From positions 1 through 60,645 of the forward strand of contig JBGPNZ010000001.1 of the NCBI GenBank assembly GCA_041487795.1: 60,645 nucleotides of DNA, given 5' to 3'. The translations under genes and the position numbers were made by a program. This document shows, one piece after another, positions 43,328-59,205 of the stretch (positions are counted from its first letter, which is position 1; every line of letters starts with the position of its first letter). Origin of the DNA: Nitrospiraceae bacterium. Lineage in GTDB: Bacteria; Nitrospirota; Nitrospiria; Nitrospirales; Nitrospiraceae. Below the pieces are notes generated by a model. That model was not told where the DNA came from and did no database searches. It was given only the letters and a program-made list of their open reading frames with translations.

Positions 43328-43402
43328 AGGACAGTGGTGAAGTCAGTATCACGGTGGCCTCCAAATCCACAGTCGGGGGTGCAATTCCTCCCTGTCCTGC
43401 CA
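43328..43402 (+). tRNA. tRNA-Trp-CCA: tRNA-Trp (CCA)
   Basis: Acceptor AGGACAG/CTGTCCT, loop CTCCAAA, T-loop TGCAATT (G at position 55), CCA encoded. Confidence 0.85.
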
Positions 43403-43420
43403 TTCTTCTTAGGAGTATTA

Positions 43421-43804
43421 ATGAACACAGTCGAGCGCTTGAACCGTATCCTCTTCACGAAGTACCCGAACCTCAAGATCTCCATCGACGCACCCAAGAA
43501 CCGCGGAGGCAACTGGTGGGTGGATCTGAAGCTGGGCTTGCAGATGGTGACCTATGTCTGGAAGCCGCGCCATGGCTTCGGACTCTGGAAGGACAGCAAC
43601 CCTACTGCCTTCGAAACGAAGCCCGACGAGGTCTATGCGGACATGAACCACGCTGCCGATCGGATCATGGAGCGTCTGACGGGCGGCCGGCGTGAGGTAC
43701 CCAGGCGGGAAAGGACTCATGCCACCTGGCTGATCGGGTCGCTCAAGAGCCAGGAGGAACGGGAGGCGGAACGTCGGAGGGCGCCCCAGCGTCGATCACG
43801 ATAA
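43421..43804 (+). CDS. hypothetical protein (127 aa)
   Basis: ATG 43421 lies after AGGAG. The upstream part of track ORF 43292-43804 is tRNA sequence. Confidence 0.55.
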   Translation: MNTVERLNRILFTKYPNLKISIDAPKNRGGNWWVDLKLGLQMVTYVWKPRHGFGLWKDSNPTAFETKPDEVYADMNHAADRIMERLTGGRREVPRRERTHATWLIGSLKSQEEREAERRRAPQRRSR

Positions 43805-43912
43805 GAGGAACATCCTCGTCTTCCACGAAGACTTCCTCCTCGGGCTCGGGCGCAGGCTTCGAGACCAGGACGGCAATCGATGTTGGAGGCATGAAGTATT
43901 ATACAATTTCTC

Positions 43913-43986
43913 GGTCCCTGAGTGTGGCGGACGCACGACACCCTGTCACGGTGTTAGGACGGGTTCGACTCCCGTAGGGATCGCCA
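43913..43986 (+). tRNA. tRNA-Asp-GUC: tRNA-Asp (GUC)
   Basis: Acceptor GGTCCCT/AGGGATC, loop CTGTCAC, T-loop TTCGACT, G73, CCA encoded. Confidence 0.9.
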
Positions 43987-43987
43987 T

Positions 43988-44062
43988 TCCCAGATCGTCT
44001 AACTGGTAGGACAGCGGACTCTGGATCCGCGAACGTAGGTTCGAACCCTACTCTGGGAACCA
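43988..44062 (+). tRNA. tRNA-Gln-CUG: tRNA-Gln (CUG)
   Basis: Acceptor TCCCAGA/TCTGGGA (U1-A72), loop CTCTGGA, T-loop TTCGAAC, CCA encoded. Confidence 0.85.
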
Positions 44063-56239: not shown

Positions 56240-56255
56240 GGAAGAAAGGAGTCCC

Positions 56256-57044
56256 ATGCTGATCTGGAACGGTCAGAAGATCGCGCCGCTGATGTTCCCG
56301 GATGGAACATCCCAGGTGTGGAAGGTTCCGGGCGAGCTCAAAGGCGGGGACATCGTCTGGAAGTTCGAACACGAGGGAGAGCTCATGCACGTGGCCCAGC
56401 TCTCCTGCCTGAACAAGGGTGGCGTACGTCTCGTCATACCGTACATGCCGTACGCAAGACAGGACAAGGAGATCTCCAACGAGCAAACTTTTGCCTTACG
56501 CCCTTTCGCTGCACTGATCAACAGGATGCAGTTCAAGGAAGTGCTTGCCGTCGACGTGCACAACGTCGCGTTCACGAAGGAGAAGATCGATCACTTCGTG
56601 AACATTGAACCCATCGGCTTCCACACGGATGTCACGAGCGCAGTCGACCCCGACTTCGTGATCTTCCCGGATGCCGGCGCCAAGAAGCGCTACCAGTACA
56701 TCGACGACTATCCGATCATCGTCTTCAACAAGAAGCGTGATCAGGCTACGGGGAAGATCCTGGATGTCGAGGTCGTCGAGAAGACCTCCAACGTGCCGCC
56801 TGACCAGAAGACGGTCGGGCTCATCATCGACGACATCTGCGACGGCGGCGCCACGTTCATCGGGATTGCCGATGAGGCGAAGAAGCTGTTCCCCAACATG
56901 AAGCTGCATCTGGCCGTCACGCACGGCCTGTTCAGCAAGGGCCGGAAAGTCCTGACCGATGCCGGCCTCACGCTTCACACGACTAATTCTCTCGTCAGAA
57001 ACCCTGACGATTTTCCGCTTGAGGAGGGCCTATGGAAAACGTGA
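56256..57044 (+). CDS. ribose-phosphate pyrophosphokinase (Prs)-like enzyme; candidate ADPR-pyrophosphate synthetase (Adps) of a NARP1-type pathway
   Basis: PYMPYARQDK and the PRPP/ribose-phosphate loop VGLIIDDICDGGATF. 262 aa from ATG 56256 (RBS AAAGGAG). Overlaps the NAMPT-like gene by 13 nt. Confidence 0.75.
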   Translation: MLIWNGQKIAPLMFPDGTSQVWKVPGELKGGDIVWKFEHEGELMHVAQLSCLNKGGVRLVIPYMPYARQDKEISNEQTFALRPFAALINRMQFKEVLAVDVHNVAFTKEKIDHFVNIEPIGFHTDVTSAVDPDFVIFPDAGAKKRYQYIDDYPIIVFNKKRDQATGKILDVEVVEKTSNVPPDQKTVGLIIDDICDGGATFIGIADEAKKLFPNMKLHLAVTHGLFSKGRKVLTDAGLTLHTTNSLVRNPDDFPLEEGLWKT

Positions 57045-58447
57045 TGCTACGAACCGACGTCTACAAAATGGGACATATGGAGCAGTACCCGCCCGGCACG
57101 ACGAAAGTTTACTCCTACCTGCTCGCGCGTTCCGACAAGAAGATGCCGAGCACGCTCTTCTACGGCCTCCAGTACTATCTCAAGCTGCTCGAGGTGAAGC
57201 CGACCCAGGAGATGATGGACGAGTTCCTCGTCTATCGGAAGCGGATCCTCGGCTTCGATGCCTCCCAGGATGTGAAGGACAAGCTCTCCGCGCTGGTCAA
57301 GCTCGGCTACATCCCGCTCAAGATCAAGGCCGTCCGCGAGGGCTCCATCATCCCCGTCCGCAACGTGCTCATGACGCTCGAGAGCACGGTTCCGGGATTC
57401 CACTGGGTGGTCGGGTTCTTCGAGAGCCTGCTGCTCAAGGTCTGGAACACCTGCACGGTGGCTTCCTACAGCAAGAAGCTGAAGGATCTTTGCAAGCGGT
57501 TTGCCGATGAGACCTGTGACGACGATGGGCACCGTCCCTTCCAAGTCCACGACTTCGGCTACCGCGGCTGCTCCAGCGACGAGACCGCGATGCTCTCCGG
57601 CAGCGCGCACCTGATCAACTTCCTGGGCACGGACACGGTGCTCGCGCTCAAGATGATCATCGACACCTACGGGTGCTCCGAGCCGATCGGCCTGTCCGTG
57701 ACGGCCAGCGAGCACTCCGTGGTCTGCGCGTATGGGAAAGAGCGCGAGTTCGACGCTTTCGAACACATGCTCAAGTTGGTTCCCACGGGGATCATCAGCC
57801 AGATCTCCGACACCTACGACCTCTGGAACGTGCTCACGAACTTCGCCGAGAAGCTCAAGAGCCGTATCCTCGACCGCGACGGCAAGTTCGTCTTCCGCCC
57901 CGACAGCGGCGATCCGCCCAAGATCATCTGCGGCGACGGCGATGCCGAGACGGGTTCTCCCGAGTGGTTCGGGGCCCTGCGTCTTCTGGACAAGAATTTC
58001 GGTTCCAAGAAGAACAAGAAGGGCTACCGCGTGCTCAACCCCAAGGTCGGCCTGATCTACGGGGATGGCATGTTCTATGAGCGCTTCGAGCGCACCCTCG
58101 AGATGATGAGGGATATGAAGTACGCTTCCTCCAATCTCGTGATCGGAAGCGGCGGCATCCTCCTCCAGCAGCATAACCGCGACGACCAGGGTTATGCCAT
58201 CAAGGCGACGTTCGCCGAGGTGAACGGGGAGATGCGGGAGCTGGTCAAGGATCCGATCACCGACCACAAGAAGAAGTCCCACAAGGGACTGGTCGCGCTT
58301 CTCAAGGACGATGACGGTCGGTACTTCACGAAAGACCAGTGCACGGCCGAAGAGGAGGCCAAGAGCCTGCTCGAGACGGTCTATCTGAACGGCAAGATCA
58401 CGCGGACGACGACGTTCGACGAGATCCGGAAGCTGGCCGCGAAATGA
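57032..58447 (+). CDS. nicotinamide phosphoribosyltransferase (NAMPT)-family enzyme; candidate Namat of a NARP1-type pathway
   Basis: TDVYKMGHMEQYPPGT, HDFGYRGCSS, SEHSVVCAYG, FRPDSGDP, GLIYGDGM: a NAMPT/NadV-like pattern. 471 aa. Confidence 0.85.
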   Translation: MENVMLRTDVYKMGHMEQYPPGTTKVYSYLLARSDKKMPSTLFYGLQYYLKLLEVKPTQEMMDEFLVYRKRILGFDASQDVKDKLSALVKLGYIPLKIKAVREGSIIPVRNVLMTLESTVPGFHWVVGFFESLLLKVWNTCTVASYSKKLKDLCKRFADETCDDDGHRPFQVHDFGYRGCSSDETAMLSGSAHLINFLGTDTVLALKMIIDTYGCSEPIGLSVTASEHSVVCAYGKEREFDAFEHMLKLVPTGIISQISDTYDLWNVLTNFAEKLKSRILDRDGKFVFRPDSGDPPKIICGDGDAETGSPEWFGALRLLDKNFGSKKNKKGYRVLNPKVGLIYGDGMFYERFERTLEMMRDMKYASSNLVIGSGGILLQQHNRDDQGYAIKATFAEVNGEMRELVKDPITDHKKKSHKGLVALLKDDDGRYFTKDQCTAEEEAKSLLETVYLNGKITRTTTFDEIRKLAAK

Positions 58448-58521
58448 CGCCCGAACGCCAGGATGGGCCTTTGACTCATGTCACGGGCGGTGTAAGATAT
58501 GAGTCAGATAAGGAGCCGCTC

Positions 58522-59064
58522 GTGACTTCGGATCTTCTCCCCCTCAGGCTGATCAAGTTCCCCAACGATCTCCTCGTTGCGCGGAACTGGGAAGTGAAGG
58601 AAGTCAATGACGAGGTCAAGGAGAAGGTCGTCCGGATGTTCGAGATCCTGTACCAGTCGGGAAACGGGATCGGACTCGCGGCGCCGCAAGTGGGATGGAA
58701 CGCCCAGCTCTTCATTCTCAACCTTGATCCCGAAAGGAAGAAGAGCGGTGAGATGGTGTTCATCAACCCGAGGATCGTCGAGGTCGGCGGCGACGAAGAG
58801 ATGATGGTGGAAGGGTGTCTGTCCTTCCCCGGCATCTTCGCTTCGATCAGGCGCTACACCGAAGCCACCGTGGTGTCCAAGGATCTCGCGGGGCAGCTCA
58901 GGGACGTGAAGTACCAGGGGCTGGGCGCACAGGCGCTCCAGCACGAGACGGAGCACTGCGAAGGCATGCTCTTCATCGAGAAGATGTCGCCGGCCGACAA
59001 GAAGCTCAACGAGCCCAAGATCAAGCAGCTCGTCGAGAACTACTGGAGGCGCAACAAGAAGTAG
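58522..59064 (+). CDS. def: peptide deformylase
   Basis: GIGLAAPQVG (motif 1), EGCLSFPG (motif 2), HETEHCEG (motif 3). GTG 58522 lies 6 nt after AAGGAG. An alternative ATG at 58444 overlaps the NAMPT stop. Confidence 0.85.
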   Translation: MTSDLLPLRLIKFPNDLLVARNWEVKEVNDEVKEKVVRMFEILYQSGNGIGLAAPQVGWNAQLFILNLDPERKKSGEMVFINPRIVEVGGDEEMMVEGCLSFPGIFASIRRYTEATVVSKDLAGQLRDVKYQGLGAQALQHETEHCEGMLFIEKMSPADKKLNEPKIKQLVENYWRRNKK

Positions 59065-59127
59065 GTCGACCTAAGTATCCTTCCTGGCGTTCGCGCAGTA
59101 ACAGGACGTCAGGTGAGCATAATATAC

Positions 59128-59205
59128 CGCGGGGTGGAGCAGTCTAGTCAGCTCGCTTGGCTCATAACCAAGAGGTCGCAGGTGCGAATCCTGCCCCCGC
59201 TACCA
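59128..59205 (+). tRNA. tRNA-fMet-CAU: initiator-like tRNA-fMet (CAU)
   Basis: 5' CGCGGGGTGGAGCAG as in E. coli tRNA-fMet. C1 is unpaired with U72. Loop CTCATAA, T-arm GCAGG-TGCGAAT-CCTGC, A73, CCA. The anticodon stem lacks the three G-C pairs. Confidence 0.75.

Follow-up and report, generated by a model that had tools for sequence, protein, structure and literature searches.

Positions 1 to 60,645 of contig JBGPNZ010000001.1 (assembly GCA_041487795.1, Nitrospiraceae bacterium; this whole stretch of 60,645 nucleotides (nt) is called the window) carry a long array of transfer RNA (tRNA) genes, many of which have T-loops that depart from the familiar TTC, and this raises the question of whether such genes still encode tRNAs and, if so, how their elbow, where the D-loop meets the T-loop, could be built. 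According to reviews, G18, G19, U55 and C56 are universally conserved in tRNA (PMC7912444, PMC4810234), and in the canonical molecule G18 is inserted between positions 57 and 58 and contacts Psi55 (pseudouridine 55), with the G19:C56 pair forming the exposed face of the elbow (PMC4810234, PMC7912444). In 16 of the 38 well-formed tRNA genes of the array, U55 of the T-loop is replaced by G together with the replacement of G18 by A in the D-loop. Judged from the gene sequences, it is probable (roughly 0.7) that these are genuine tRNA genes whose A18·G55 elbow is compensated.

The array is located on a single strand, begins at 42.8 kb and continues up to the window's end:
42833..60431, + strand: whole tRNA array, interspersed with small open reading frames (ORFs) and RNA-related genes

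It comprises 38 well-formed tRNA genes, all with an encoded CCA and together covering all 20 amino acids; in addition, 48998-49101 holds a tRNA-like gene of aberrant form. ARAGORN reported 32 tRNAs in the window, which Rfam supplemented with five (Phe 44993, Ala-CGC 46143, His 47495, Met 49310 and Thr-CGT 51075), and a structure-only parse supplied two more (Ser-UGA 49552 and Ser-GGA 49663); the parse is anchored on the encoded CCA, the discriminator, a 7-base-pair (bp) acceptor stem and a 5-bp T-stem, and makes no use of loop sequence.

An earlier note on this DNA had counted about 17 of 39 tRNAs with non-canonical T-loops, and the count stands, with the 38 well-formed genes and the gene at 48998 making up the 39 and every loop reading exactly as it was listed there. 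Ten genes carry TGCRANT (R, purine; N, any base), which we call the UGC class (Trp, Tyr, Thr-UGU, Ser-UGA, Cys, Arg-UCU, Glu-UUC, Lys-CUU, Leu-UAA and fMet/initiator), five carry GGCAGNA, the GGC class (Phe, His, Met 49310, Ser-GGA and Thr-CGU), and Ala-CGC alone carries AGCATAA, the AGC class, with TGAAAAT found in the 48998 gene. As the same note had stated, the rest are canonical, namely 22 tRNAs with TTCRANY loops (Y, pyrimidine) and G18-G19. Its perfect stems enclosing 7-nt loops were likewise recovered, since the register is set by the encoded CCA and by those stems, and minimum-free-energy folds return the same 7-nt loops in 14 of the 17 variant genes. An alternative register restoring TTC is ruled out, as TTC is absent from all 17 T-arms in both the parse and the folds. 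The variant genes are as follows.
43328..43402, + strand: tRNA-Trp(CCA), UGC class; T-loop TGCAATT, D-loop AGTCAGTA (A18 G19); recovered by ARAGORN, Rfam, parse and fold
44993..45066, + strand: tRNA-Phe(GAA), GGC class; T-loop GGCAGTA, D-loop AGAAGTT (A18 G19); missed by ARAGORN
46143..46217, + strand: tRNA-Ala(CGC), AGC class; T-loop AGCATAA (A54·U58, A60), D-loop AATCAGGA (A18 G19 G20); G3:U70; missed by ARAGORN
46301..46386, + strand: tRNA-Tyr(GTA), type II, UGC class; T-loop TGCGAGT, D-loop with TAGGA; D-arm irregular; ARAGORN yes, Rfam no
47494..47570, + strand: tRNA-His(GTG), GGC class; T-loop GGCAGCA, D-loop AGCAGCACT; encoded G-1 opposite C73; missed by ARAGORN
48917..48991, + strand: tRNA-Thr(TGT), UGC class; T-loop TGCAAGT, D-loop AGCAGCCA; ARAGORN yes, Rfam no
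48998..49101, + strand: aberrant tRNA-like gene; acceptor stem and CCA, extra arm of ~31 nt, T-loop TGAAAAT (A56, not C56), ambiguous anticodon loop of 6-7 nt
49310..49383, + strand: tRNA(CAT), elongator Met or Ile2, GGC class; T-loop GGCAGAA, D-loop AATAGTA; fold z = -4.2; missed by ARAGORN
49552..49640, + strand: tRNA-Ser(TGA), type II, UGC class; T-loop TGCAACT, D-loop GTCAGCG; one additional base between the D and anticodon arms; missed by ARAGORN and Rfam
49663..49753, + strand: tRNA-Ser(GGA), type II, GGC class; T-loop GGCAGCA, D-loop ATAGTAGGTAG, with AG at the place where Ser-GCT has GG; missed by ARAGORN and Rfam
50993..51067, + strand: tRNA-Cys(GCA), UGC class; T-loop TGCGAAT, D-loop AAGAGTA, discriminator U73; ARAGORN and Rfam
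51075..51150, + strand: tRNA-Thr(CGT), GGC class; T-loop GGCAGAA, D-loop AATTAGCA; missed by ARAGORN
51934..52010, + strand: tRNA-Arg(TCT), UGC class; T-loop TGCAAAT, D-loop AACTAGATA (A18 G19 A20); ARAGORN and Rfam
53292..53366, + strand: tRNA-Glu(TTC), UGC class; T-loop TGCGACT, D-loop ACGAGTTA; ARAGORN and Rfam
54496..54571, + strand: tRNA-Lys(CTT), UGC class; T-loop TGCAAGT, D-loop GAGTAGCA; ARAGORN and Rfam
55897..55974, + strand: tRNA-Leu(TAA), UGC class; T-loop TGCAAAT, D-loop GAACTAGCAT; short variable loop (type I); ARAGORN and Rfam
59128..59205, + strand: initiator-type tRNA(CAT), UGC class; T-loop TGCGAAT, D-loop AGTCTAGTCA; 1-72 mismatch, A11:U24; ARAGORN and Rfam

What has changed in these loops is narrower than first described. 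The loops had been said to break T54-Psi55-C56, which does not hold, because C56 is kept in 16 of 17; in these, U55 has become G, positions 54, 58 and 60 differ in some genes, and position 18 of the D-loop differs in all. A compensating change at G18/G19, which the earlier note had proposed to look for, was indeed found: A18-G19 occurs in 16/16 variants and G18-G19 in 22/22 canonical tRNAs, as illustrated by the canonical D-loops AATTGGTA and ATATCGGTTAG against the variant ones AATTAGCA and ATAGTAGGTAG, respectively. G19, C56 and G53:C61 are invariant across the 38 well-formed tRNAs. Since C56 is constant and the shared change is U55G with G18A, TTC has not been lost as a unit.

The same coupling was observed beyond the window, in tRNAs gathered by a cloverleaf finder that is blind to loop sequence and returns 0-3 weak matches on the opposite strand of the window. 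Among 294 non-redundant tRNAs, from which duplicates and every tRNA retrieved by T-loop pattern had been removed, 250 combine U55 with GG, none U55 with AG, 42 G55 with AG and two G55 with GG (Fisher p = 6e-49), and both exceptions are type-II Ser tRNAs with ambiguous D-loops. A second switch is seen across 685 non-redundant tRNAs, where 54·58 is U·A, G·G or A·U, and the forms other than U·A go with A60 instead of Y60 (Fisher p = 8e-38). All six combinations of the three 54·58 forms with the two 18·55 states were found, an example of their independence being an Asp tRNA of contig L021 with GTCGGAA and G18-G19, and the loop types can therefore be regarded as products of two modular tertiary-pair switches. 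Accordingly, of the two discrete loop types that the earlier note had proposed, the discreteness is upheld and the types as basic units are not; that the variants are discrete and recurrent instead of randomly decayed is supported by the matched D-loops, the stem pairing and the compensatory changes, which indicate structural selection. The classes themselves are uniform: UGC-class loops read U-G-C-R-A-N-N in all 10 genes here and in 111/111 elsewhere, with A at position 57 in 72% compared with G in 68% of canonical loops, and the 17 non-redundant GGC-class loops have G54, G55 and G58 in 17/17 and A57 in 14/17. A generic GGC-class pattern gave 120 matches, 110 of them outside any cloverleaf called by the finder, and these 110 are taken to be chance hairpins.

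The frequency of G55 in the window is not due to chance. In the comparison with other phage arrays that had been recommended, G55 was present in 2/226 other tRNAs on 120 viral contigs chosen solely by a canonical Met tRNA pattern, which has at least 120 matches, compared with 16/38 in the window, and at the control rate the probability of at least 16 G55 tRNAs among 38 is P = 2.6e-23.

Are the variants working genes? That they are decaying pseudogenes, or tRNA-like decoys outside translation, is highly improbable. ARAGORN misses 7/16 of them, including every GGC- and AGC-class gene, and Rfam misses 4/16 (Tyr, Thr-UGU, Ser-UGA and Ser-GGA, of which ARAGORN recovers Tyr and Thr-UGU); the D-arm junction is irregular in Tyr and Ser-UGA by the cloverleaf parse, and the 48998 element is clearly aberrant, all of which would suit decay. 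Against decay, 16/16 variants have an encoded CCA and intact acceptor, anticodon and T stems, stems are paired to 96-99% in the variant classes compared with 98% in canonical tRNAs, and the variants have a 7-bp acceptor stem, a D-arm, a 5-bp anticodon stem with a 7-nt loop and U33, and a 5-bp T-stem with a 7-nt loop. Twelve of the 16 score 36.9-59.6 bits against the gathering threshold of 29 bits of the Rfam family RF00005, even though none shows its consensus of U54-U55-C56 with G18-G19 (C56 and G19 are retained). Identity elements are kept as well, such as G-1:C73 in His, G3:U70 in Ala, the 1-72 mismatch and A11:U24 in the initiator, A20 in Arg and U73 in Cys, and long arms are present in the Ser and Tyr variants. 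The Phe variant has a near-identical ortholog in relative L011, in which pair 27-43 has changed from C-G to T-A, and the Glu-UUC variant has an ortholog in relative L016, in which pair 52-62 has changed from G-C to A-T, both compensatory. Six amino acids (Trp, Tyr, Cys, Phe, His and Arg) are served in the array solely by variants, one other phage carries a variant set for all 20 amino acids, and every variant has the compensating D-loop. The variants read common and rare phage codons alike, and no relation was found between elbow type and the codon use of the phage's own genes. Broken stems, lost identity elements and uncompensated loops, as expected of pseudogenes, were thus not found, and the variants look like functional tRNAs.

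How the altered elbow could hold together is suggested by T-loops outside tRNA. In flavin mononucleotide (FMN) riboswitches, 88.7% of the T-loops that dock a 5-nt receptor are UGNRA, and the consensus of the FMN/cobalamin type is YGNRA; the intercalating base is A in 99.96%, sits between the fourth and fifth loop positions and is bonded to the sugar edge of G2, and a ribosomal RNA (rRNA) T-loop GGAAG also exists (bioRxiv 10.1101/2022.12.26.521914). All 10 UGC-class loops have U-G-N-R-A followed by two unpaired bases, the partner adenosine facing G2 is supported by the covariation of A18 with G55 and of G18 with U55 (the p = 6e-49 given above), and GGCAG in five genes of the window has the G-G-N-A-G form of the rRNA-type loop. 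Since U-G-N-R-A with an intercalating A is standard in FMN and cobalamin riboswitches and GGAAG is present in rRNA, the phage tRNAs may adopt this generic T-loop solution instead of the tRNA-specific UUCRA with G18. A18 of the D-loop would then slot between 57 and 58 and contact G55. The outer stacking face offered to the ribosome, RNase P and CCA enzymes would be expected to remain unchanged, and the inner layer of the elbow would be chemically distinct, with Psi55 and 2'-O-methylated G18 (Gm18) impossible and, in the GGC and AGC classes, 5-methyl-U54 (m5U54) and 1-methyl-A58 (m1A58) lacking too.

The spread of the design was followed through relatives that share genes of the array region, two of which were used as anchors:
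41152..42771, + strand: Ro60/TROVE-domain protein, directly upstream of the array
52234..53211, + strand: RNA ligase (PF09414; homologues named TIGR02306 family by the Joint Genome Institute, JGI), within the array

Syntenic arrays were found in L011 (TROVE protein 87%), L009 (TROVE 69%) and L016 (RNA ligase 76%), and variants make up 23-42% of tRNAs in this phage lineage. In L009, Asp, Ala-GGC, Ala-CGC and His belong to the UGC class and Ser-GCU to the GGC class, with Trp, Phe, Cys and Thr-CGU canonical; L011 has Asp in the UGC class and Phe in the GGC class, with Trp and Ala-CGC canonical; and both Glu tRNAs of L016 are of the UGC class. Across these relatives, positions 18 and 55 always switch jointly and the variant occupies different tRNAs. 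A 50% homologue of the RNA ligase was rejected as an array relative, because it sits in a cellular contig without tRNAs (L014), and a metagenome scan for relatives of the ligase gave no match. At the DNA level, no relative of the window was found among the GenBank phages searched; the initiator tRNA alone matches some of them (RcXuper and Caulobacter jumbo phages), and these copies, like the homologue in RB23, are canonical.

Variant-rich arrays outside this lineage include L005/L008 (a 452-kb contig), L021, L138, L120, L319, L364 and L350. An extreme one is L392 (IMGVR_UViG_3300035681_000111, 4851-9095; the same array is in L394), in which ~36 of 39 tRNAs (~92%) have G55: its ~39 tRNAs lie within 3.4 kb and serve all 20 amino acids, only three are canonical, the UGC, GGC, AGC and CGC classes are all present, and the D-loop is of the A18 type wherever it could be parsed. 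Downstream of the L392/L394 array there are genes for SPFH, RtcB, HNH, a lambda-type portal and a PD-(D/E)XK nuclease, and none of the flanking genes is evidently a tRNase. In the cultured Microcystis phage Mwe-JY26 (L019, PP438418.1), three unannotated tRNAs (Pro-UGG, Thr-GGU and Glu-UUC) have GGCRG loops and A18:
PP438418.1, 97296-97369, 99883-99959 and 100990-101066: unannotated variant tRNAs of Mwe-JY26, where ARAGORN finds only the 16 annotated ones

Strong as the enrichment in some phage arrays is, the link to phages that the earlier note had drawn needs widening, since chromosomal Met/initiator tRNAs of many Patescibacteria share the design. A Met-type G55 tRNA pattern matched 47 viral contigs and 91 stretches in a collection holding one genome for each of 185,579 species; nearly all of the matches have the D-loop AGTAGTA or AGCAGTA, and about four keep GG. 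Patescibacteria (Saccharibacteria, Parcubacteria, Paceibacterota and others) account for 43 of the 80 best of the 91 genome stretches, and, among the matches listed, their copies lie on contigs of up to 397 kb beside housekeeping genes. The initiator-type tRNA with TGCAAAT and D-loop AGTAGTA recurs in many of their metagenome-assembled genomes (MAGs), and from these sequences the G55 tRNA looks like the native initiator tRNA of those Patescibacteria. Five of their loci (L032, L046, L061, L094 and L096) have a second variant CAT tRNA with TGCAAGT or TGCAAAT and the D-loop AGGTAGTTA or AGGCAGTTA. Apart from these, the tRNAs of the cellular loci are of the canonical kind; 95 of them show G18-G19, and in two the D-loop could not be read. 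Outside Patescibacteria, some matches are prophage-borne (L049 is identical to viral L136) or truncated, as with the half-copies in Paracoccus; the truncated 3' halves of such a tRNA in Paracoccus and related genomes look like integration-site duplicates.

Why phages would favour this elbow is the least certain step. It may be that they enrich A18·G55 for independence from, or invisibility to, a factor that reads the U54-U55/G18 layer, the candidates being a T-loop-directed nuclease made by host or phage, or modification-dependent maturation or surveillance; as the selective reason, such an escape is at best a tentative proposal. In its fuller form, also well short of an even chance, A18·G55 would define a phage-private pool of ribosome-competent tRNAs, spared by a host defence tRNase or by a phage nuclease that removes host tRNAs, with a set for all 20 amino acids converted in L392 and the window's phage partly converted. 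The share of G55, rising from ~1% in controls to 42% in the window and ~92% in L392, where the converted set covers all 20 amino acids, supports discrimination of this kind, as do the RNA-repair genes beside variant-rich arrays (TROVE and RNA ligase here, RtcB in L394). Several points weigh against it. RNA ligases are common beside phage tRNA arrays generally; canonical and variant tRNAs coexist in the window, so whatever favours the variant is not absolute; L003, the nearest relative in IMG/VR judged by the TROVE protein, shows only canonical tRNAs in the part examined, and the variant is therefore not a trait of the wider clade; and no protein is common to the variant-rich arrays within the available flanks. 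The A18·G55 geometry is itself inferred by analogy with riboswitch T-loops. At the syntenic slots that differ between relatives (Trp, Asp and Ala-CGC), the whole tRNA is strongly diverged, which points to gene replacement instead of two point mutations in place, and because these slots look replaced whole, the enrichment in this lineage could mirror the pool of donor phages. Finally, no anti-phage nuclease or factor reading positions 18 and 55 was found in the literature, and the anti-phage tRNases found cut the anticodon arm (PMC11464382, PMC11555353, PMC13056530, PMC12445682). One contact-dependent inhibition toxin has been reported to act as a T-loop tRNase that cleaves between positions 54 and 55.

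Several of these points suit a neutral history, in which A18·G55, with or without G54·G58 or A54·U58 and A60, is equally fit and has spread by cassette exchange and duplication, so that its high share is a historical accident; we regard this as possible, on odds clearly below even. Variants and canonical tRNAs are mixed in the array without relation to codon use, the tRNA that bears the variant differs between close relatives, no partner gene emerged in the flanks examined, and the design persists over the long term in cellular initiator tRNAs. However, drift alone is hard-pressed by a share that spans ~1% to ~92%, with G55 in four loop classes of L392, and, because single changes at 18 or 55 inactivate a suppressor tRNA in a yeast screen (PMC4117946), a switch in place would have to cross a fitness valley. 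A rather unlikely, though not negligible, alternative is that the A18/G55 elbow is stable without Psi55, m5U54 and Gm18 and need not wait for TruB, TrmA and TrmH, which would suit tRNAs made in bulk late in infection as well as bacteria with minimal genomes. Consistent with this, yeast mitochondrial tRNA-Asp lacks Psi55 because its G55 cannot be pseudouridylated (bioRxiv 10.1101/2025.05.09.653160), TruB and TrmA are important to the maturation of tRNA and to fitness (PMC11214086), initiator tRNAs of the reduced-genome Patescibacteria have the design fixed, and the CCA encoded in all variants fits a lower reliance on host maturation. On the other hand, most tRNAs in the Patescibacteria loci are canonical, with only the CAT tRNA variant, phage tRNAs are mostly canonical too, and the UGC class retains U54 and A58. 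That the phage simply acquired A18·G55 tRNAs in use by its host is very unlikely: cellular genomes do contain such tRNAs, the GGC-rich contig L021 was binned with a Chloroflexaceae MAG, and TROVE homologues at 58-62% identity include, among the named ones, Aggregatilineales (Chloroflexota) and Myxococcota MAGs, but cellular loci are variant only in CAT tRNAs, the 95 others with a readable D-loop being canonical (L021 excepted), and L021 is a dense, CCA-encoding array typical of phages. The host of the Microcystis phage is a cyanobacterium, whose tRNAs are expected to be canonical, and this counts against host copying as well. On balance we lean slightly towards discrimination, with no reading placed above about one in three.

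The window as a whole resembles a portion of a tailed-phage genome that is GC-rich (57-61%). A replication module is present (PolIII-alpha/UDG fusion, gp32-like protein, RecA, helicase, primase-helicase and class II ribonucleotide reductase), and a search with the primase-helicase for phage relatives gave only matches of <31% identity. The early part (603-1532, 2623-4967, 5346-5939 and 9639-11054) encodes a reverse transcriptase, a JAB-domain protein with a ThiF-family protein, a RadC-like JAB protein and a radical SAM protein. Within the array, 56199-59064 holds a weak PRPP-synthetase-like ORF, a nicotinamide phosphoribosyltransferase and a peptide deformylase, the last immediately preceding the initiator tRNA gene. 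Another RNA-related gene of the array region is a weak dual-specificity-phosphatase-like ORF at 51253-51915 (- strand). RNA-related genes of the relatives include RlaP and cpYpsA (L009) and RtcB (L394). At 42986-43120, ARAGORN called a tRNA-Ile without CCA, which is part of an element of ~135 nt whose ends pair (TGCCGATG with CATCGGCA) and which holds a canonical T-arm hairpin and a D-arm-like hairpin (fold z-score -3.1). A search of this element against Rfam gave no match; its position immediately 3' of the Ro60/TROVE gene suggests a Y RNA of the YrlA type, in which a tRNA-like domain is present.

Some tRNAs of the array are unusual in their variable arm. Asn-GUU at 51159-51249 has a long variable arm (type II), its anticodon being normally that of a type I tRNA, and similar cases are Asn-GUU in L005, L138 and L120, Trp-CCA in L005 and Lys-CUU in Mwe-JY26. 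Bacterial Leu tRNAs normally carry a long variable arm, and Leu tRNAs (CAA, UAA and others) with a 5-nt variable loop were found at 55652-55728 and 55897-55974 of the window and in L021, L138 and L392. The Leu tRNAs with CAA, UAA and UAG read codons that make up 0-3% of the Leu codons in the phage's own genes, and no tRNA reading the dominant CTC and CTG lies within the window, past the end of which the array may extend.

Psi55 is taught as the most conserved RNA modification, and the genes described here are predicted to yield tRNAs that never bear it, nor Gm18, with two classes lacking m5U54 and m1A58 besides. They would represent a natural, compensated alternative to the G18/U55 elbow across all tRNA identities and suggest that the tRNA elbow can follow a generic T-loop rule. 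Apart from the remark on G55 in yeast mitochondrial tRNA-Asp, a natural A18/G55 class is undescribed in the literature searched, where subscription journals are thinly covered and an earlier report is possible. There is also a blind spot in annotation, with GGC- and AGC-class genes missed by ARAGORN here and three tRNAs unannotated in a cultured phage; because gene finders miss variant tRNAs, phage tRNA counts and codon coverage are underestimated. The variants further provide tRNA scaffolds of natural origin, possibly orthogonal to T-loop-reading enzymes, and, if their enrichment does reflect escape from a T-loop reader, the arms race that phages and bacteria wage over tRNA would gain a new front.

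Compared with known systems, the elbow described here shares with the canonical one the cloverleaf, a 5-bp T-stem closed by G53:C61, a 7-nt loop, G19:C56, a purine at 57 and flipped-out bases at 59-60, and differs in G55 with A18 and, in some genes, in 54·58 being G·G or A·U with A60. With the generic T-loops of FMN/cobalamin riboswitches, RNase P and rRNA it has in common U-G-N-R-A with two bulged bases and a preference for A at position 4; unlike them, it sits inside a tRNA, has the D-loop as its partner and still uses position 3 in the Watson-Crick pair G19:C56. GGCAG resembles rRNA GGAAG in that its first, second and fifth bases are G and its fourth is A, whereas the GGC class of tRNA also carries A60 and pairs with A18-G19; no report of a GGAAG-type T-loop in tRNA was found in the literature searched. 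The eukaryotic initiator tRNA has A54 and A60 in its T-loop, with U55 and G18. The AGC and ATC loop types here share that A54 and A60, but U55/G18 is retained in the eukaryotic molecule, while in the tRNAs described here U58 is the partner of A54 and G55/A18 may accompany the pair. Like the phage tRNAs that face tRNA-cleaving defences (T5 tRNA-Lys against PARIS; retron effectors), those of the window may differ from the host's at a site relevant to such a factor and have RNA-repair genes nearby; however, the known cases concern the anticodon arm (PMC11464382, PMC11555353, PMC13056530), and here the difference lies in the elbow. Organellar and special tRNAs, such as yeast mitochondrial tRNA-Asp, animal mitochondrial tRNAs and tRNA-Pyl, demonstrate that altered elbows are tolerated in translation. 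Their elbows are isolated cases or, in reduced systems, broadly degenerate, whereas a precise, recurrent and compensated rule is followed here across all identities, in GC-rich phage arrays as well as in bacterial initiators.

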